Below are positions 5,035-18,068 of a DNA stretch of 18,068 nt, piece by piece; the first letter of the stretch is position 1, and every line of letters starts with the position of its first letter. This DNA comes from a virus (lineage: Duplodnaviria; Heunggongvirae; Uroviricota; Caudoviricetes), in the IMG/VR virus record IMGVR_UViG_3300021387_000529, positions 282,811-300,878 of that record. One strand, 5' to 3'. Both the position numbers and the translations under genes were made by a program. The notes below the pieces were generated by a model that saw only the letters and a program-made list of their open reading frames with translations, did no database searches and had not been told where the DNA came from.

Positions 5035-5043
5035 AAATTAGTT
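5035..5043 (-). promoter_or_regulatory. ACTAA-class putative late promoter (AACTAATTT)
   Basis: AACTAATTT-TATATT-ATG; no SD. Confidence 0.5.
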
Positions 5044-6061
5044 AGTCACCAATAGAAGTCTTGTTTTTTCCAGAATGCTTAGAACAATACAAAAGTGAGT
5101 CAACAACTTTAATATTTTGGTCGAGAGTTAGACTATTGTCATATAATACAGCTCCAACTGAAATAGAAAATGATTTTTTAATAGAATTATCATTTTTAGT
5201 TCTGTTCAAAACATTGATACGAACAGCTTCAGCAATCTTATACAAGTCATATTTTAAAGTCAAGTCTTTCAGGATAATAATAAACTCTTCACCACCATAA
5301 CGGATAATTTTATCATCTTTTCGTAAGATTTCTTGTAATATTTTGTATAGTGACTTTAATGAAGCATCACCGTTGCTATGGCCAAATTCATCATTTAATT
5401 TTTTAAAATTATCGATGTCAATCATAATAATACCACAGTTTGTCAAATCTTGATCGTATAAATAATATCGATTATATGCGCCAGTAAGCTGGTCTTTATA
5501 TGCGTGCTCACGCAGTTCTTTGTTTACTTCACATAGTTTTTTGAAAGCGGTATAAGTGACAACGTATGTAAATAAGTATGAAACAGTTGTTCCAACCAAA
5601 ATTCTGGTAGAGTTTGTTGTATAGAACTCAATATTTTCAATATTTATTTGGTATTTTATTTTCAGCCAAATTAAAAAGTCATATAAAATTATAGGAAAAA
5701 ACCCAAGCTTTCCGAGATTTTTGTCGAGATAAGAAACTAAACCGAATGTTGATGAAATAAGATTTAAAAAATAAATGAAGCCGCCATCTTTACTTGAAAT
5801 TAGTAATGCTGGAAATGTAAGATATGCCATCAAAAATATTATGATTTTTGGATATAAATCATATTTGTTGAGAATAAAAATAGTAAAAATACCTAATATG
5901 AAAACTAAAGAAAAACTGATAGTAACAGAAATGATGTTTATATTGCCAATAAAAGTATTTTCATAATTGATGTAATCAATTAAAAGGCCTGCTCCATTCG
6001 AAATGACAGCAAGAATAAAAAAGATAAATGAAAGCTTAAAATTAAATCTATTATTAGTCAT
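5042..6061 (-). CDS. Membrane-anchored diguanylate cyclase (GGDEF domain)
   Basis: About 5-6 hydrophobic helices in the first 175 aa, then DQLTGAYNR, IDIDNFKKLNDEFGHSNGD, I-site RKDD five residues before RYGGEEF, and FSISVG. Confidence 0.93.
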   Translation of the reverse strand: MTNNRFNFKLSFIFFILAVISNGAGLLIDYINYENTFIGNINIISVTISFSLVFILGIFTIFILNKYDLYPKIIIFLMAYLTFPALLISSKDGGFIYFLNLISSTFGLVSYLDKNLGKLGFFPIILYDFLIWLKIKYQINIENIEFYTTNSTRILVGTTVSYLFTYVVTYTAFKKLCEVNKELREHAYKDQLTGAYNRYYLYDQDLTNCGIIMIDIDNFKKLNDEFGHSNGDASLKSLYKILQEILRKDDKIIRYGGEEFIIILKDLTLKYDLYKIAEAVRINVLNRTKNDNSIKKSFSISVGAVLYDNSLTLDQNIKVVDSLLYCSKHSGKNKTSIGD

Positions 6062-6133: not shown

Positions 6134-7957
6134 TTAGTCTGCCTTCTTGTTGAAGTCTTTCATATTAGCGATCTTAACGATTGCCAAGAAGCGGCGGTTG
6201 AGTACCTGGTGGTCACCCCAAGTAGCGATACCAGCTTCCTTGTAGAAGTTCTTACGAGGAATGATACCTGTTGAGAAGAATGGAACCAATGTACCGAATA
6301 CGATAGAAACTTCTGTTTCAACCTGGTCATCTTTCCATACTGTCAAGATTTCATCTGTTGGGATGATGCTTGATGGTACTTTGAATACAGGCATGCTGTC
6401 GAATGTACCTTCCTGGTGAGCACCACGAGATGCCTGTTTTCCAGTTGGGCTCCACAATCCCTGAGCGAGTTTCAAGTAAGAAACAGCTGAAGGACCACCT
6501 ACCAAGCGGCTTACACCACCACGGAGGATTTCATCATAAATAACATCACCAATTGCGTCAAATGCTGAAACAATTGTTGAAGCGTTGTCACGATAACCGT
6601 CTTTAGCACCACGTGTATTAGCTGGAACATCCTCTGTTGAGTAAGCAGCATCGAATACATAGTAGTAGTTAGGGTTATGTGAAGCATTTGTCTTAGCCAT
6701 CTGATAACCGAGTTTGATTGCACGGTAGTCAAGAGCTGAACGGATTTCCTGAGAAGCGTAGCTTACCAAGAGCTCTTCAGCTGATGTGCTGTAAGATGTC
6801 TGCAATGTGATTTCTGTGAGCTGTGACCAAGAAACACCAATTGATGTCATAGAAGGTTTGAACTGGTAGTCTGTCAACTGGATTTCAACTTCACCAAGGT
6901 GGTTACCTTCGAAGTCGCTCTCAGCGTTGAAACGTCCATAAGCACGAATTTCTGTGCTTCCATCTTTGAACCAAGGAGCTTTCTTAGCAACATCTTCTGT
7001 TGTAGAAACTTTTACAATCATTACACCAGGACCTTCAGTCTTCAAAGCAGCTTCGATGTCGTCAGTCTTTGGCATAACTGTGATACCAGCTTCATGGTTG
7101 TTGAGGAACTTGCTGCGGTAAGCAACAGGCTTAATCATCTCAACTTTGAAACCAGGAGCAGCAAGGAATTCACCAGAACGTTTGTCCTGAGCTGCGATGA
7201 GCTGCTGGTCTACAGTATTGCTGTCATCACCATCATTGTAACCGAAGATTCCTACATAACCATCAACGTAGTTAGCACCATTTTTACCCCATTTTGTTGA
7301 GAGGTGTTTTGCACTCTCTGAAAGACCTTCGATTTCTGTACCGTCTGTGAGGTCTTTGAAGAAGAGTTTTACCTGCTCACCGTTGATTTTACCGTCAACA
7401 GGAACGTTTGCGATTTCCATATTGTGGCGATCACGAACGTCTTCATAGAGAGCCTTACGGAATTCATCACGGTTGAAGTCACCACCTTTTCCATACTCCC
7501 ATGGGTCGTAGTCGTCATCTTCACGTCCACCGTATGTTGAGTCACGGTCGTTCAAGTCATGTCCATTAGCTGTTTTGCTGAAGAATGGACGAACGTACTG
7601 GATGCTGTCCTTTGTTGTTTCAAGAGCAACTTCTGTAAATACTTTATTGCGGATAAGGTTTGGCATTGAAAGTCTTACAAGACGAAGCATATTCTCTGGT
7701 GTGAAGTTGTTCAATGCTGTTGCCATCTGAGACTCTTTCAAGTTGCTCATAAAGTTGTACTGGCGGTCCAAGTTGATAGCTGTGTTACGAGCAACACCAA
7801 CTGGCATTGTTTTCAAACCTTCACCTACTTCAGGAATACGTGACCAAGCTTCGATAAGCTTGTCAGCTCTGAAATTTCTGTCATCCTTGTACATTTTCTG
7901 TACTGCTTCTGCGCGAGCATTAGCATTTTTTGCGCTCATTGCTGAGTTCATACCCAT
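6134..7957 (-). CDS. gp23: Major capsid protein, T4 gp23-like, 607 aa
   Basis: LIEAW...NTAINLDRQ...LKES...MLRLVRLSMPNLI parallels the gp23 N-terminus; QLTEITL...EIRSALDYRAI and C-terminal LVPFF...FYKEAGIATW parallel the HK97-fold core; SD AAGGAG; strong codon bias; own terminator. Confidence 0.85.
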   Translation of the reverse strand: MGMNSAMSAKNANARAEAVQKMYKDDRNFRADKLIEAWSRIPEVGEGLKTMPVGVARNTAINLDRQYNFMSNLKESQMATALNNFTPENMLRLVRLSMPNLIRNKVFTEVALETTKDSIQYVRPFFSKTANGHDLNDRDSTYGGREDDDYDPWEYGKGGDFNRDEFRKALYEDVRDRHNMEIANVPVDGKINGEQVKLFFKDLTDGTEIEGLSESAKHLSTKWGKNGANYVDGYVGIFGYNDGDDSNTVDQQLIAAQDKRSGEFLAAPGFKVEMIKPVAYRSKFLNNHEAGITVMPKTDDIEAALKTEGPGVMIVKVSTTEDVAKKAPWFKDGSTEIRAYGRFNAESDFEGNHLGEVEIQLTDYQFKPSMTSIGVSWSQLTEITLQTSYSTSAEELLVSYASQEIRSALDYRAIKLGYQMAKTNASHNPNYYYVFDAAYSTEDVPANTRGAKDGYRDNASTIVSAFDAIGDVIYDEILRGGVSRLVGGPSAVSYLKLAQGLWSPTGKQASRGAHQEGTFDSMPVFKVPSSIIPTDEILTVWKDDQVETEVSIVFGTLVPFFSTGIIPRKNFYKEAGIATWGDHQVLNRRFLAIVKIANMKDFNKKAD

Positions 7958-8142
7958 TTTGATAATTCTCCTTTTAGAATAGAAGTCTTCAAAACAAATA
8001 TCTTAAAATGACATTCACTTATATTTAAAAGTGTATTTCAGGTGTTATATAAAAACAAACTTGTACCAAAATATATGAATCTTGGTAATTTCCTTTAAGA
8101 AATTTTTGAAAGACAGACGCTCTTAATAAGCGTCATTGTTTA

Positions 8143-8157
8143 ATTATATAGTTAGTT
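8143..8157 (-). promoter_or_regulatory. Putative promoter for the capsid gene (AACTAACTA-TATAAT)
   Basis: ACTAA-like motif plus a TATAAT hexamer about 185 nt upstream of the capsid ATG; start site not verifiable. Confidence 0.4.
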
Positions 8158-8180
8158 TATTTTCAAAAGATGCAAGTTTT

Positions 8181-8209
8181 TTGAACAATTTTTATTAATC
8201 TCATATATT
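8181..8209 (+). promoter_or_regulatory. Sigma70-type (early) promoter TTGAAC-N17-TATATT
   Basis: -35 at 8181-8186, -10 at 8204-8209; both hexamers, the spacing and flanking TCATATATTATAT are identical to the copy at 14811-14839. Confidence 0.75.
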
Positions 8210-8231
8210 ATATCCGTAACAAGGAGAAAAT

Positions 8232-9023
8232 ATGAAGACCTTTAATCTTGACTTCTACGGCAAAGACAGTGTCCGTTTTAATCGTGACATCCAGGTCCCA
8301 GATGAAATATATGATGAGTTCAAAAAACTCTTCGATGCCGCAAAAGACGGAGAAGAAATCTTCGATAAAGTTTCATCAGCTGATGTTTCAGCTTTCTTGA
8401 AAGAGCTCAATCCGAATATTTCACCAAAAGTTTTGCGTACTGCAAAATGTAACAAAGTTTTGGTCGATGAATTGAAGAAACAGAAAGTTGATGAGAATTC
8501 AACTGATGCTGAAAAAGTTCGAGCAATGTATCGTGCAAATCTTGAAATTGCAAAGACTCTTAACCACCAGAAAAATGTTGCAAAAAACTTCAAAGAACAG
8601 GAAGAAAAAGCCAAAGAAAAGGTAACAGCTTCTCAGGATAAAATGATTGAAGTTAAGGCAAAGCAGGAAGAAAAGCTCGCCAAACTTGATGAAGAAGAAA
8701 AATCTATCAAAGCAAAATATGCAAAAATGCCGACTTTGAAAAAAGAAAAGCTTGCTAAATTGAAGGAAAAACGCGCCAAGCTTGAAGCTCAACTTGAGAA
8801 ACAGAATGAGCGCATTGAAAAAGCACAGTTCAATCTTCAGAAAAAGCAGGAAACTAAGGACATCAATCTTGGAACTTCTTTGGGAGCATATGCTGACTAC
8901 CGCATTATCTACAGCTGGTGTAATGATATGAAGCTCAATCCAAAGAAAATCTACACAAAAGGTTTGCTTGACAAATCACAGTCATTTGCAAATACAGACA
9001 AAAACTTCTGGAAGACAATCTAA
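8232..9023 (+). CDS. C-terminal half of an archaeal/eukaryote-type DNA topoisomerase IB (catalytic core remainder, coiled-coil linker, Tyr domain)
   Basis: LDFYGKDSVRF (human FDFLGKDSIRY, K532), PKVLRTA (AKVFRTY, R590), ANLEIAKTLNHQK (ANRAVAILCNHQR, H632), Lys/Glu-rich linker, INLGTSLGAYADYRI (IALGTSKLNYLDPRI, Y723). Own SD AAGGAG and promoter. Confidence 0.88.
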   Translation: MKTFNLDFYGKDSVRFNRDIQVPDEIYDEFKKLFDAAKDGEEIFDKVSSADVSAFLKELNPNISPKVLRTAKCNKVLVDELKKQKVDENSTDAEKVRAMYRANLEIAKTLNHQKNVAKNFKEQEEKAKEKVTASQDKMIEVKAKQEEKLAKLDEEEKSIKAKYAKMPTLKKEKLAKLKEKRAKLEAQLEKQNERIEKAQFNLQKKQETKDINLGTSLGAYADYRIIYSWCNDMKLNPKKIYTKGLLDKSQSFANTDKNFWKTI

Positions 9024-9024
9024 A

Positions 9025-9438
9025 ATGGCATATGATGAGTTCAGAGGCGTGTATGGTGAAGAAGCTGAAAAATACACGCTGAATTGGTTCCGTTCAAAAG
9101 GATATGAAGCAATCCCAACTAAAGAATGGTTGGGAAACAAATGGTCACCTGAAAATGACGCAAAATATGGCGACATCCAGATTATTAAGAATGGTGACAT
9201 TACACAAAGAATTGATGTAAAGCGTGCTGGGCCAAATGAGCCTGATGCGTTTTATGGCACAATTACAAAAACTGGAGCCTCAGAGACATTCAGAAATGAC
9301 CCAAAAGCATGGTATTTATTGTTTAATAAAAACATGACAAAATATATTTGGGTAAAAGCGACTTCATTACGAAGCTCACAGCCAAAAAATGGAAAATTTT
9401 GGACAACAAAAGAAGTCTTACCTTATGCTGAGCATTAA
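9025..9438 (+). CDS. PD-(D/E)xK restriction-endonuclease-like protein
   Basis: Start moved to ATG 9025, just after the Topo stop. GEEAE helix, YGDI, RIDVKR give the E...D...DxK pattern. Confidence 0.6.
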   Translation: MAYDEFRGVYGEEAEKYTLNWFRSKGYEAIPTKEWLGNKWSPENDAKYGDIQIIKNGDITQRIDVKRAGPNEPDAFYGTITKTGASETFRNDPKAWYLLFNKNMTKYIWVKATSLRSSQPKNGKFWTTKEVLPYAEH

Positions 9439-10384: not shown

Positions 10385-10918
10385 ATGGAAGATAATGAAA
10401 AAGAAGAAGAGCGTACTTCTTCAAAAACATTAGCTGAGCTAGAAGCAGAAAGCTTACGTAGATTTGAACAATTTATAGAAATTACATGGCAACCTATTCC
10501 AAATAGGCATAAAGTACGTGTATGGATAGATGATGGTACGTTTAAAATGGTTATGTCAAATGAGAAATTTATCAAAACTCTTGAAGATATTTTGATGGAT
10601 AACCAATCACAAAAAACGTATTATAACATGCGCAATATTGAGAATTCATTATCACAATATCAAGGTTTTTATCAATATAACCGCCAAACAGATGAATATA
10701 GAGCTTTGAACCAGTTACGCTTTAATGATAAGTTGACAAAACAAGACTTGTATGAAAATGCACGTGCAGACTATGACGCAAAGTTTGGAAAAGACAACGT
10801 CTTAAACCATATGGTAAATATCAGCTTATTCGATAAGATGGCTGATGCTGACATTCGAAAACAAAATATACAGAACAACTTATTGAAAAATACAGCGCGC
10901 TTTTATGGAGGATTTTAA
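10385..10918 (+). CDS. Hypothetical protein, 177 aa
   Basis: Intact ORF coupled to the next gene by a TAATG overlap. Confidence 0.75.
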   Translation: MEDNEKEEERTSSKTLAELEAESLRRFEQFIEITWQPIPNRHKVRVWIDDGTFKMVMSNEKFIKTLEDILMDNQSQKTYYNMRNIENSLSQYQGFYQYNRQTDEYRALNQLRFNDKLTKQDLYENARADYDAKFGKDNVLNHMVNISLFDKMADADIRKQNIQNNLLKNTARFYGGF

Positions 10919-11877
10919 TGTTACTCACAAATGAAGACATGGAAGGCGTGTTTGAAAGAATGTACTGGCATTTGAAAATACGTCTGACAACAAGATGCAA
11001 TATGGCATGTGCACATTGCTATGCAGCTTCAGAGCAGTATGCCTCATATGAAAAAGAGAGACTTGAAAATTTTGAATGGGTTGACAGACTTGCAAAAAGT
11101 GAATATATTAAGTTTCTGCATCTTCAAGGCGGTGAGCCAACATTAGAGCCTGAAGCAATAAAAGAGTGCGTAAAAATTGGACATAAATACGGAAAACCAG
11201 TTTGTGTCTTTACAAATGGAAAAAGACTGTATGAAGATGAAGACTTTAGAAATGAGTTTTTAACATTTGGTGTTGACAACATAATTGTTTCATTTAATAA
11301 GTATCTTGAAGCACAAACAGACCAGGCAAAGGTTGTGAATACGCTTATGCACTTTTTTGAAGATAAACCAAACATTCATTTTGGCTCAACAGCAATTATC
11401 GATAAAGACCATATCGCTCATCTTCAAAGATGGATTCAGCATTTTGGTTGGCCGCCATATTATCCAGAAGACTTCCCAGACGTTGAAGAAAAATTAGAAA
11501 ATAAAAAATATTGGAAGTTTCAACTGCCATTATGCTATTCAGACCGTGGAGCAAAAACTGCTGCGAACAATGACGTTGCTGAAATAACTTGGCCAGCATT
11601 AGGATGTGACTTTTCGCCAGTTCTGATGCCATCTGGATTTTTACAAGCAGATTGTGGATGTTCTTCAGTTAGAAAATGCTTATTAGGCTTTATAGATGAC
11701 TTTGGCGATGACCCAATAGACTATATTGTAACAAATATGTCACGTTATATCCACTATAACGTTCATGCAAATGGATTTTATCAAATTTGTATGAAAAATG
11801 ACAATATGAGATGTCTTAGAAAATATCCGCCACGAACACGGCCTGACAGTGAATATGAAGAAAGGATGAAATACTAA
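10918..11877 (+). CDS. Radical SAM enzyme with Cys-containing C-terminal extension
   Basis: TTRCNMACAHCY (CxxxCxxC), GGEPTL, VFTNG; further Cys in GCDFSP and DCGCSSVRKC; SD GGAGG. Confidence 0.9.
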   Translation: MLLTNEDMEGVFERMYWHLKIRLTTRCNMACAHCYAASEQYASYEKERLENFEWVDRLAKSEYIKFLHLQGGEPTLEPEAIKECVKIGHKYGKPVCVFTNGKRLYEDEDFRNEFLTFGVDNIIVSFNKYLEAQTDQAKVVNTLMHFFEDKPNIHFGSTAIIDKDHIAHLQRWIQHFGWPPYYPEDFPDVEEKLENKKYWKFQLPLCYSDRGAKTAANNDVAEITWPALGCDFSPVLMPSGFLQADCGCSSVRKCLLGFIDDFGDDPIDYIVTNMSRYIHYNVHANGFYQICMKNDNMRCLRKYPPRTRPDSEYEERMKY

Positions 11878-11878
11878 A

Positions 11879-12358
11879 ATGAACTATCAATTTTGGAAAA
11901 AGACTGGATGCATTAAGCCATTCCAATCAGTCGAAGAATTTGAAAAATTTCAAGAAGACGCAATAAAAGATAAATGGACAGGCGTAAAACCGAACAGTCC
12001 ATTTAATAAAGCGATTGCAAAAAAGGGCTTTGCATATGGTGTTTCATATGATAGTTTTGCTGAGTTTACGTTCATGACGTATGAAGAAAAAATATGCCAT
12101 GCTTCAGTAGAACGAAATATGAAATTGAAGTTTTTGAATTATATTGATGAAAATGGTAAAAGCCGAAAGTGGTACCCAGACTTCGTAGTGAATGGCATTT
12201 TTTATGAAGTAAAAGGCGTTGTTAGACCAAAAGATCAGCAAAAGAAAAATCAACATCCTGAAGTTGAATGGGTTTTCTCAGAAGACTGCAAACAAATGGC
12301 AAAAGAATTAGATGACAAATGTCCAGGGTGGCGTGATGAGTTTGTTCCAAAAAATTAA
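11879..12358 (+). CDS. PD-(D/E)xK nuclease, TnsA-N/T4 gp4 head-completion-like
   Basis: SFAEFTF, WYPDFVV, FYEVKG; directly upstream of the portal gene. Confidence 0.7.
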   Translation: MNYQFWKKTGCIKPFQSVEEFEKFQEDAIKDKWTGVKPNSPFNKAIAKKGFAYGVSYDSFAEFTFMTYEEKICHASVERNMKLKFLNYIDENGKSRKWYPDFVVNGIFYEVKGVVRPKDQQKKNQHPEVEWVFSEDCKQMAKELDDKCPGWRDEFVPKN

Positions 12359-14778: not shown

Positions 14779-14812
14779 AAATGCAAACTGTAAAAAGTTT
14801 GCATTTTTTTTT
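14779..14812 (+). terminator. Rho-independent terminator of the portal operon
   Basis: AAATGCAAACT-GTAAAA-AGTTTGCATTT (11-bp stem) followed by a T run. Confidence 0.8.
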
Positions 14813-14839
14813 GAACCTTTCTGTGCTTTTTCATATATT
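14811..14839 (+). promoter_or_regulatory. Sigma70-type (early) promoter TTGAAC-N17-TATATT
   Basis: -35 at 14811-14816, -10 at 14834-14839; twin of 8181-8209. Confidence 0.75.
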
Positions 14840-14860
14840 ATATATGTAAAGAGGTAAACT

Positions 14861-16882: not shown

Positions 16883-17710
16883 CTAGAGGGACTTTTTAAA
16901 TCTATCTTGAAATATCGACGGAAATCTTTTAATTGTTTTTTCAATCATTCTTTTAGTAAGTCCAGTTTTTAAAACAAGTTTAGTTACGTAGCCGAACTTA
17001 GAAATATCTACACCACTTTGAAGAATTATATCTTTTCTATGTTCCCATTCTGATGTTGGAATAAGAGTTCTATTAACTTTTCCAGACTTGTCAACAAGTC
17101 CAAGAGCAGCTTTTTTTGCTTTCCAATTGTCATATTTTAGTTTTTCAAGTCTTTTTTTCTCAAAAAATTGGTCTTGTAATTTTAATTCAAATGAGTCATC
17201 TATAAATGACTTCATCATTTTAATAGCATTTTCTTTTTCTGTTTGGATAAAGCTCCAACTAAGTCTTAAACATGTCCAGCCATTTGACTTTAACCAATCA
17301 TCTCGTTTTTTATCGTAGTCTTTTTGTAATTCATGCTGTTTGCCATCAATTTCAATATAACGCATCTTTTTTGGCCAAGCAAAGTCTAATTTATAGTGTC
17401 CTACAGGTAAGTTATATTCAAAGTCTTTATCATTAAAATTATTTTTTATTACAGAAGAAAACCATAATTCAGGATATGACATTCCATTTACATTTTTCCG
17501 TGTGTTTGCCCAACCTTTATGTCTACCTTCACTATGAGCAATTTTCATCTTTTGAGAGATTTTTTCTTTAGTTTCTTTTGAAAGTTTATGGCTTTGATAG
17601 ACTTTTCTGTTTGGATTCATAATACAATATTTAATATGTCTACTTAAGCCACTTTTAGTCGTGAGCTCACGACCACAAAAACTACATACATGTAATTGAA
17701 CATTCATCAT
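16883..17710 (-). CDS. Free-standing DUF559/Vsr-like (EDxHD-type) putative homing endonuclease with zinc finger and NUMOD3-like motif
   Basis: CSFCGRELTTKSGLSRHIKYC (Zn finger), HKLSKETKEKISQKMK (NUMOD3-like), SYPELWF, YKLDFAW, IEIDGKQH. Confidence 0.8.
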   Translation of the reverse strand: MMNVQLHVCSFCGRELTTKSGLSRHIKYCIMNPNRKVYQSHKLSKETKEKISQKMKIAHSEGRHKGWANTRKNVNGMSYPELWFSSVIKNNFNDKDFEYNLPVGHYKLDFAWPKKMRYIEIDGKQHELQKDYDKKRDDWLKSNGWTCLRLSWSFIQTEKENAIKMMKSFIDDSFELKLQDQFFEKKRLEKLKYDNWKAKKAALGLVDKSGKVNRTLIPTSEWEHRKDIILQSGVDISKFGYVTKLVLKTGLTKRMIEKTIKRFPSIFQDRFKKSL

Positions 17711-17725: not shown

Positions 17726-17805
17726 TGCATGTGACAAGATTCGAACTTGCATTTTCAGCTCCATTTACAGATACCTGTTTCGTAGACAGGACTGGCTACA
17801 CATGC
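17726..17805 (-). tRNA. Non-canonical tRNA-like gene, anticodon ACG (Arg), D-arm absent; CCA not encoded
   Basis: Acceptor GCATGTG/CACATGC plus discriminator A; T-arm GCAAG-TTCGAAT-CTTGT; hairpin CCTGT-CTACGAA-ACAGG; only 8 nt (TAGCCAGT) where the D-arm should be; 23 nt between anticodon and T arms. Confidence 0.65.
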
Positions 17806-18068
17806 TCATGTTTTTCACATAAATATCTATAATATTCACGTGTTTTTCTGTTTGAATTGAGGAACATACATTTCATATATTCTTCACAAGCTTCTGTAAG
17901 TTGATAACCAAGTTTGTCTTTGAAAAACTTTAGTCTGGCCACAACTTTACCATCATTGTAAACTGGTCCAACAAAAGAAATTATTCCAGTTTTCATAGTT
18001 TCTTCAAGAGCAGATGAATACAACTTTTTCCAAAGTGGGATCCAAGCTGCACTGTCAATAGACAATAA
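17796..18068 (-). CDS. Hypothetical protein, C-terminal part (probably starts outside the window)
   Basis: Frame is open to the window edge; TAG stop at 17796-17798 lies inside the tRNA-like 5' end. Confidence 0.6.
   Translation of the reverse strand, partial: LLSIDSAAWIPLWKKLYSSALEETMKTGIISFVGPVYNDGKVVARLKFFKDKLGYQLTEACEEYMKCMFLNSNRKTREYYRYLCEKHEHV

Follow-up and report, generated by a model that had tools for sequence, protein, structure and literature searches.

Long-form type IB topoisomerase (TopIB) has been described as restricted to eukaryotes and Thaumarchaeota (PMC2621148, PMC4824112). Thaumarchaeota are stated to be the only prokaryotes with the long enzyme, and viruses and bacteria to have a short version (PMC4824112). 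In the kinetoplastids Leishmania and Trypanosoma, TopIB is a heterodimer with a large subunit that holds the catalytic Arg, Lys, Arg, and His and a small subunit that holds the Tyr region only (PDB 2b9s; PMC3759442). In phages, free-standing homing endonucleases have produced "genes in pieces," such as Aeh1 nrdA/mobE, T4 gene 39/mobA/gene 60, and phage 25 gene 43 (PMC2988022). Here, we analyzed an 18,068-nt stretch of DNA (the window), the final 18 kb of the complete 300,878-bp record (G000; GC content, 35%) of a rumen phage. Its open reading frame (ORF) at 8232-9023 encodes the C-terminal half of a long-form TopIB, and a distant gene of the same record encodes the N-terminal half. The window ORF is most likely the C-subunit of a functional two-subunit long-form TopIB of the eukaryote/Thaumarchaeota-like type.

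The two topoisomerase genes and the break between them

The protein of the window ORF matched Pfam Topoisom_I (PF01028) over profile positions 87-226 of 228 (expect value [E], 2.5e-27; 96 bits; cut-off, 23.7), and its residues 192-259 matched Topo_C_assoc (PF14370) over profile positions 1-68 of 70 (E, 4e-16; 59 bits; cut-off, 25). In phmmer searches of the Protein Data Bank (PDB), residues 5-248 aligned with human Top1, and residues 5-148 and 170-249 aligned with Caldiarchaeum TopIB (6z01). The identity to the human and archaeal enzymes was ~30-35% over the C-half. An earlier reading of the window, made from the sequence alone without database searches (the sequence-only reading), had described a catalytic Lys (GKD), Arg (LRT), and His (NHQ), a linker of about 95 aa, and the nucleophile Tyr in this ORF, and the Pfam matches and the alignment to human Top1 bore this out. 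The ~95 residues between His and Tyr are a Lys/Glu-rich linker, presumably a coiled coil by analogy with long-form TopIB. The ORF lacks the cap and the first catalytic Arg (human R488), in agreement with the sequence-only reading. The ORF is intact, and a promoter and a strong Shine-Dalgarno sequence precede it, also as described before. The frame 5' of it is closed.

A whole-genome search for the missing half, which that reading had proposed, was successful. In a six-frame hidden Markov model (HMM) search of the 300,878-bp record, Topoisom_I_N (PF02919) had exactly one match (E, 1.2e-25), in a 300-aa gene outside the window. Residues 6-199 of this N-half correspond to profile positions 2-203 of 213 (86 bits; cut-off, 25), and alignment to human Top1 assigned the first catalytic Arg (human R488) to R274. 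In the six-frame search, the Topoisom_I core was present in two pieces only, positions 9-84 in the N-half and 85-226 in the C-half, with no overlap, gap, or third piece. The N-half terminates in GIRVGNER...VGASTLKKENFKF, and the C-half opens with MKTFNLDFYGKDS. The break replaces the turn of a beta-hairpin, which we take to be human residues 515-521 (numbering anchored on K532). Together, the halves make 300 + 263 = 563 aa, equal to the length of unsplit relatives (555-570 aa), and the long-form domain set and the Arg-Lys-Arg-His-Tyr pentad are complete only as the sum of the two genes. The genes lie ~249 kb apart along the record and ~51 kb apart across the 107-bp terminal repeat of a circular map.

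No type IA or IIA topoisomerase domain was detected in the genome. Thus, the split TopIB is the only recognizable topoisomerase of the phage, and it would presumably relieve torsional stress in replication and transcription of the 301-kb genome.

Conservation and history of the break

An exhaustive profile-free search gave 820 relatives of the C-half, and word-indexed searches gave 57 C-half-sized and ~45 N-half-sized clusters. When classified by their match to the two halves, they comprised 66 stand-alone C-halves, 44 N-halves, and ~130 two-domain proteins. The breakpoint was the same in the 66 C-half and 44 N-half clusters. C-halves have a Met 3-12 residues ahead of GKDS, and N-halves end 3-10 residues past the STLK strand. 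Homologs in related phages begin at the same residue, a point that the sequence-only reading had asked to be checked. R69, H112, and Y220 of the C-half, like K11, were invariant in 20 C-halves (27-58% identity), and R274 was invariant in 27 N-halves (33-82% identity). The ratio of nonsynonymous to synonymous substitution rates (dN/dS), which had also been suggested as a check, was 0.054 for the N-half (strain with dS of 0.30) and 0.09 for the C-half (81%-identical relative); dS was saturated in most pairs, and the usable comparisons were those with the contigs L007 and L038. These values indicate that the split is under strongly purifying selection. Both halves were present wherever enough sequence was visible (G000, G001, L032, L033, L036, L039, and L040). 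In IMG/VR, a six-sequence alignment served to find loci; scans with single proteins retrieved nothing with the C-half and, with the N-half, just contigs that were nearly identical.

Different stages of the split were seen among the relatives. The gene was unsplit, at 555-569 aa, in the IMG/VR records G002 to G005. In G001 (386 kb), the halves are adjacent, with a TAA stop, a 37-nt spacer carrying its own Shine-Dalgarno sequence, and a frame change between them. They are also adjacent in L033 (NCBI LSPZ01000001.1; 299 kb), separated by 56 nt. In L039, a GIY-YIG endonuclease gene (35 bits; cut-off, 22.6) lies between the halves on the opposite strand, and a NUMOD3 gene lies 3' of the C-half. In L040, a 297-aa ORF with an HNH-like HH..P..H motif lies between the halves. 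The 297-kb phage L032 has a 155-aa ORF in this place (L032:6942-7409, plus strand), which looks like a lipoprotein or signal-peptide protein and not like an endonuclease: it has no family match and begins with a lipoprotein-like signal, in which a Cys closes a hydrophobic stretch. In L036 (294 kb), 8.7 kb separate the halves, which are on opposite strands, and the partner half was not within 10 kb in L008, L034, L037, and L038. The L034 N-half (67% identity) and the L037 C-half (66%) were from the same sample, and the two contigs may be one phage.

The IMG/VR contig L007 encodes an N-half that is 98% identical in protein and ~94% identical in DNA to that of the window's genome. Immediately past its stop codon is a 947-bp insertion (L007:3906-4852) that the window's genome lacks. 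Its product is an HNH-like/NUMOD3 protein of 254 aa (NUMOD3, 37 bits; cut-off, 20.4) that is 40% identical (E, 1e-60) to the intervening ORF of L040. Two distant lineages thus have a member of one endonuclease family at the TopIB break. In addition, the endonuclease gene is still polymorphic in the window's lineage, because L007 carries the insertion and the window's genome does not. The last ~20 codons of the L007 N-half, next to the insertion, have diverged and resemble a P0156-type allele, as would be expected from co-conversion during homing. The proposed history is that a free-standing homing-endonuclease gene inserted at the break site and left the gene in pieces; in this lineage, the endonuclease would have been lost later, and genome rearrangement would have moved the halves ~51 kb apart.

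A tree of the C-half region (198 rows) and a careful tree of 77 rows were examined, with 200 bootstrap trees. The window's clade consisted of 38 clusters, all split (support, 97), and it includes the adjacent arrangement of G001 and the 8.7-kb arrangement of L036. Thus, the split predates the dispersal of the halves. Within the phage-type clade, which contains 31 full-length rows, split and unsplit rows were interleaved. The careful tree needed 16 state changes, 11 of which were forced by well-supported branches, and a single origin of the split was obtained in 0 of the 200 bootstrap trees. Real two-cistron splits were shown by context in four separate lineages (the window's clade, L033, L039, and L040). 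We propose that the cut is always at the same turn because endonuclease genes homed repeatedly into one conserved site; the hairpin break site must also be structurally permissive. Alternatively, the recurrence may reflect a split allele that spread laterally by co-conversion.

In the trees, the phage TopIB clade was nearer to long sequences (~480-1500 aa) than to the archaeal clade. We take these long sequences to be eukaryotic or giant-virus proteins. If this placement holds, the phage clade bears on the origin of eukaryotic Top1.

Two side observations were made on the relatives. The anaerobic ribonucleotide reductase gene nrdD of L037 (L037:15979-20209, minus strand) is broken into three or more pieces (278, 143, and 384 aa), and unrelated ORFs separate them. 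In L008, a flagellin-like gene with Flagellin_N and Flagellin_C (L008:11869-12711, plus strand) lies near the TopIB C-half.

Predicted assembly of the halves and competing explanations

Modeling the halves as a complex, which the sequence-only reading had suggested, gave an interaction prediction score from aligned errors (ipSAE) of 0.71, and the best of three controls reached 0.00. Of 80 solved complexes, 58 score this high, as do 2 of 110 mismatched pairs. Three runs shared at least 96% of the contacts, and the predicted local distance difference test (pLDDT) value of the partner was at least 86. In the model, N-half residues 297-299 run antiparallel with C-half residues 4-8, and N-half residues 256-278, including R274, lie on C-half residues 26-56 and 65-75, the latter including R69. 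The interface also touches C-half residues 4-13 (with K11), 109-111, and 222-224, next to H112 and Y220.

In the proposed mechanism, the N-subunit would bring the DNA-clamping cap and the first Arg, R274, and the C-subunit the linker and the other four catalytic residues (Lys, Arg, His, and the nucleophile Tyr). The halves would rejoin noncovalently, with N-half 297-300 and C-half 4-8 re-forming the hairpin and N-half 256-278 packing on C-half 26-56. The composite active site would relax supercoils by nicking, controlled rotation, and religation, without ATP.

The expression signals of the two genes were compared. The TATATT of the C-half promoter is inside a conserved 11-mer, CATATATTATA (8202-8212), followed by NNNGTAA. 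This arrangement belongs to a phage-specific promoter class with the consensus TTTTTGAA-N12-TTTTCATATATTATA-N3-GTAA, of which there are 34 sites in the 301-kb genome (31 on the plus strand) and none in a shuffled genome. Each TopIB half is directly behind one site of this class, with position weight matrix (PWM) scores of 44.2 and 45.8. With a promoter of this one class ahead of each half, the two are probably co-expressed, and the common class suggests the same temporal class for both genes. Another site of the class is in the window at 14811-14842, and several sites directly follow, on the 3' side, a GC hairpin and T-run, as terminator-promoter cassettes.

Contigs from ruminant-gut RNA libraries (sheep and cattle; 3 of 4 runs) cover the C-half and the ORF behind it and give weak evidence of expression and a hint of habitat. 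They carry no strand, ends, or level, DNA carry-over is possible, and the uncovered stretch between the capsid gene and the C-half (about 8125-8231) is uninformative. One metatranscriptome contig covers 8232-9401; such a two-gene contig is no proof of a single transcript. The 137-aa ORF behind the C-half is probably in its transcription unit.

Several other explanations were weighed against the two-subunit enzyme. The C-half could act alone or with another partner in a new role: it could bind DNA or regulate, inhibit a host enzyme in a dominant-negative way, or work as a recombinase-like Tyr transesterase with no need of the N-half; an inhibitor and a repurposed transesterase had been among the options of the sequence-only reading. 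Such a role would be in keeping with two genes ~51 kb apart and with the several relatives whose halves are more than 10 kb apart, and tyrosine recombinases are generally known to act without a cap domain. However, the C-half lacks the pentad's first Arg, which is invariant in the N-half, and wherever a genome or contig is long enough for judging, the halves occur together. Moreover, each broken end keeps a conserved hairpin strand, the two strands being predicted to pair, and one promoter class is common to both genes. A new role for the C-half is therefore improbable. Joining of the halves after expression, whether by a split intein, by trans-splicing of a split intron at the RNA level, or by ribosomal bypass, is less probable still as far as the sequence can tell, although fragmentation of genes by introns is common in large phages (PMC12880540). 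The broken ends have no surplus residues, the summed length is that of the unsplit protein, and both ends are inside the hairpin. Pfam gave no intein or Hint domain in either half, and no Rfam intron was found at either locus (E ≤ 1) or at the loci of five relatives (E ≤ 0.1). The C-half has its own promoter, Shine-Dalgarno sequence, and ATG, the 37-nt spacer of G001 with its frame change is too short for an intron, and bypass is impossible across 51 kb.

The break is inside the catalytic core, between two pentad residues, and it could have inactivated the topoisomerase and left two decaying pieces heading for loss; a recent remnant had also been put forward. This would be hard to reconcile with dN/dS values of 0.05-0.09 and with five catalytic residues that are all invariant down to ~27-33% identity. 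In addition, the window's all-split clade holds 38 well-supported clusters, both ORFs are intact with expression signals, and no other topoisomerase was found in the genome. Purifying selection and the invariant catalytic residues rule out a decaying remnant for practical purposes, and we consider it as improbable as joining of the halves.

The points that weigh against a functional two-subunit enzyme should be stated together. We know of no solved or published TopIB in which a break at this position is tolerated. The score of the complex may reflect likeness or model memory, because single-chain TopIB structures have been solved. The shared promoter motif is the only basis for co-expression, and the RNA contigs are from relatives of ~94% identity and are no proof of transcription. 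The window's genome has GIY-YIG nowhere, and neither broken end is flanked by an endonuclease ORF; the relatives are the basis for proposing that an endonuclease insertion caused the split. Nevertheless, of the options offered by the sequence-only reading, a heterodimer completed in trans by a distant gene is the one supported by the N-half gene, the conserved starts, the selection, and the model. We infer that the TopIB halves assemble physically, are active, and are co-expressed.

Genomic setting and relation to described systems

The features of the locus are listed in Table 1. The neighboring divergent gene had no Pfam or PHROG match of its own, and its homologs in L036 and L038 gave weak or faint matches to the Pfam Gp23 major-capsid family. 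The sequence-only reading had placed a divergent capsid gene upstream of the ORF; the divergent gene and the lack of an adjacent N-half were confirmed, and a capsid identity is plausible by way of the homologs. Directly downstream of this probable capsid gene is a gene with a GGDEF diguanylate-cyclase domain (window 5042-6061, minus strand; E, 1e-31), a putative c-di-GMP synthase of the phage, and the pair is conserved in L038.

Table 1. Positions of the TopIB genes, catalytic codons, expression signals, and neighboring genes (window coordinates unless stated)
Feature	Position	Strand	Basis or remark
TopIB N-half gene, 300 aa: cap and first Arg	genome 42196-43098 (outside window)	+	six-frame HMM search
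TopIB C-half gene, P0001, 263 aa: rest of core subdomain III, linker, and C-terminal domain	8232..9023	+	
Catalytic Lys K11 codon (GKD; human K532)	8262..8264	+	alignment to human Top1; invariant in 20 split C-halves
Catalytic Arg R69 codon (LRT; human R590)	8436..8438	+	alignment to human Top1
Catalytic His H112 codon (NHQ; human H632)	8565..8567	+	alignment to human Top1
Lys/Glu-rich linker, residues ~120-205	8589..8846	+	sequence and length variable; charged-helical character kept
Nucleophile Tyr Y220 codon (GAY; human Y723)	8889..8891	+	alignment to human Top1
C-half promoter: -35-like TTGAAC (8181-8186), 17-nt spacer, -10-like TATATT (8204-8209)	8181..8212	+	consensus scan, sigma-70-like
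Shine-Dalgarno AAGGAG, 5 nt before ATG	8221..8226	+	direct reading
ORF, 137 aa, begins 1 nt past C-half stop	9025..9438	+	no family match
Divergent gene, 607 aa, probable major capsid protein, not part of enzyme	6134..7957	-	shows no adjacent N-half

At the ends of the record, a direct terminal repeat of no more than 107 bp (window 17962-18068, identical to genome 1-107) points to circular permutation or a circular map. It looks like an assembly overlap of such a map and not like a physical long terminal repeat. A misassembly at ~8230 had been named as a possible flaw, but the same capsid/C-half layout occurs in L038, an independent assembly with 78% identity, which argues against it.

Near the end of the window, a 275-aa ORF (16883-17710, minus strand) joins a C2H2 zinc finger to a C-terminal DUF559/Vsr-like endonuclease domain (E, 8e-15) and is a possible free-standing homing endonuclease. 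It is adjoined by a tRNA gene (17726-17805, minus strand). At 10918-12358 (plus strand), behind a 319-aa radical-SAM gene, a 159-aa product weakly matches phage endonuclease I (T7 gp3-like); next comes a 731-aa ORF that has no family. The block is syntenic in L034 and L038.

Neither half matched any of 50,697 GenBank phage records (tblastn), and PHROGs has no family for either. Literature searches on phage, jumbo-phage, and homing-endonuclease TopIB gave no report of long-form TopIB in phages, and the searched literature made no mention of the NCBI assembly GCA_001577435.1, which contains an adjacent split pair. Thus, the phage long-form TopIB family appears undescribed so far. With more than 100 clusters at 90% identity, it is relevant to the history of the enzyme. 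In addition, the stages provide an unusually complete series of remodeling by selfish endonucleases: intact, invaded, endonuclease lost with adjacent halves, inverted at 8.7 kb, and ~51 kb apart with separate promoters. With a natural, repeated cut between the first Arg and Lys, which the enzyme evidently survives, clamp opening, the assembly of the active site, and the action of inhibitors could be studied in an enzyme of two pieces. A more far-reaching picture, which we consider rather unlikely as a whole, is a large, undescribed clade of eukaryote-like long-form TopIB in large phages of gut and rumen bacteria, with a hairpin-turn hot spot cut many times independently by mobile endonuclease genes and an obligate heterodimer whose active site receives one Arg in trans. 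This heterodimer would be so stable that its genes could drift 50 kb apart, and its assembly might be regulatory.

Compared with described long-form TopIB (PMC2621148, PMC4824112; 6z01; human Top1 1a36), the phage enzyme has the same domain set and catalytic pentad. It differs in being split and in residing in a ~300-kb virus with T4-like capsid matches and bacterial-type expression signals. Gene fragmentation is general in this phage group. Fragmentation as such is expected in this type of genome, since introns and endonucleases commonly break up genes of gut jumbo phages, as has been reported for Jug phages (PMC12880540). Phage genes fractured by split inteins are similar in that an essential DNA-metabolism gene is divided in two, frequently around an endonuclease gene, but intein halves are absent here, and reassembly must be noncovalent.

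The classical "genes in pieces" are closer. As in those cases, the gene is contiguous in relatives, two cistrons are cut at a critical region, an HNH or GIY-YIG gene is found at the cut (here in the relatives L039, L040, and L007), and the pieces are expected to reassemble noncovalently. TopIB is, as far as searched, a new target, and the same site has changed state at least 11 times. The endonuclease is gone in the window's phage, and the halves lie ~51 kb apart behind separate promoters, whereas the classical pairs stay adjacent.

The kinetoplastid enzyme is also of the long form, is encoded by two unlinked genes, and has a divided active site; the association of the phage subunits is predicted by modeling. 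The difference in break position, which the sequence-only reading had noted, was borne out by the alignments of the 2b9s chains: chain A aligns to C-half residues 5-115 and chain B to residues 203-257, which places the kinetoplastid break between His and Tyr. The phage enzyme is instead cut between the first Arg and Lys, in the beta-hairpin of core subdomain III. The phage enzyme would work in a like manner but does not belong to the kinetoplastid type. The origin differs as well: in relatives of the phage, the break site is occupied by homing-endonuclease genes. As a study system, the two-piece phage TopIB would add to the kinetoplastid heterodimer, itself a drug target. In general, the system described here is a variant that combines heterodimeric TopIB with endonuclease-made genes in pieces, differing from the latter in its target, in its recurrence, and in the dispersal of the halves.

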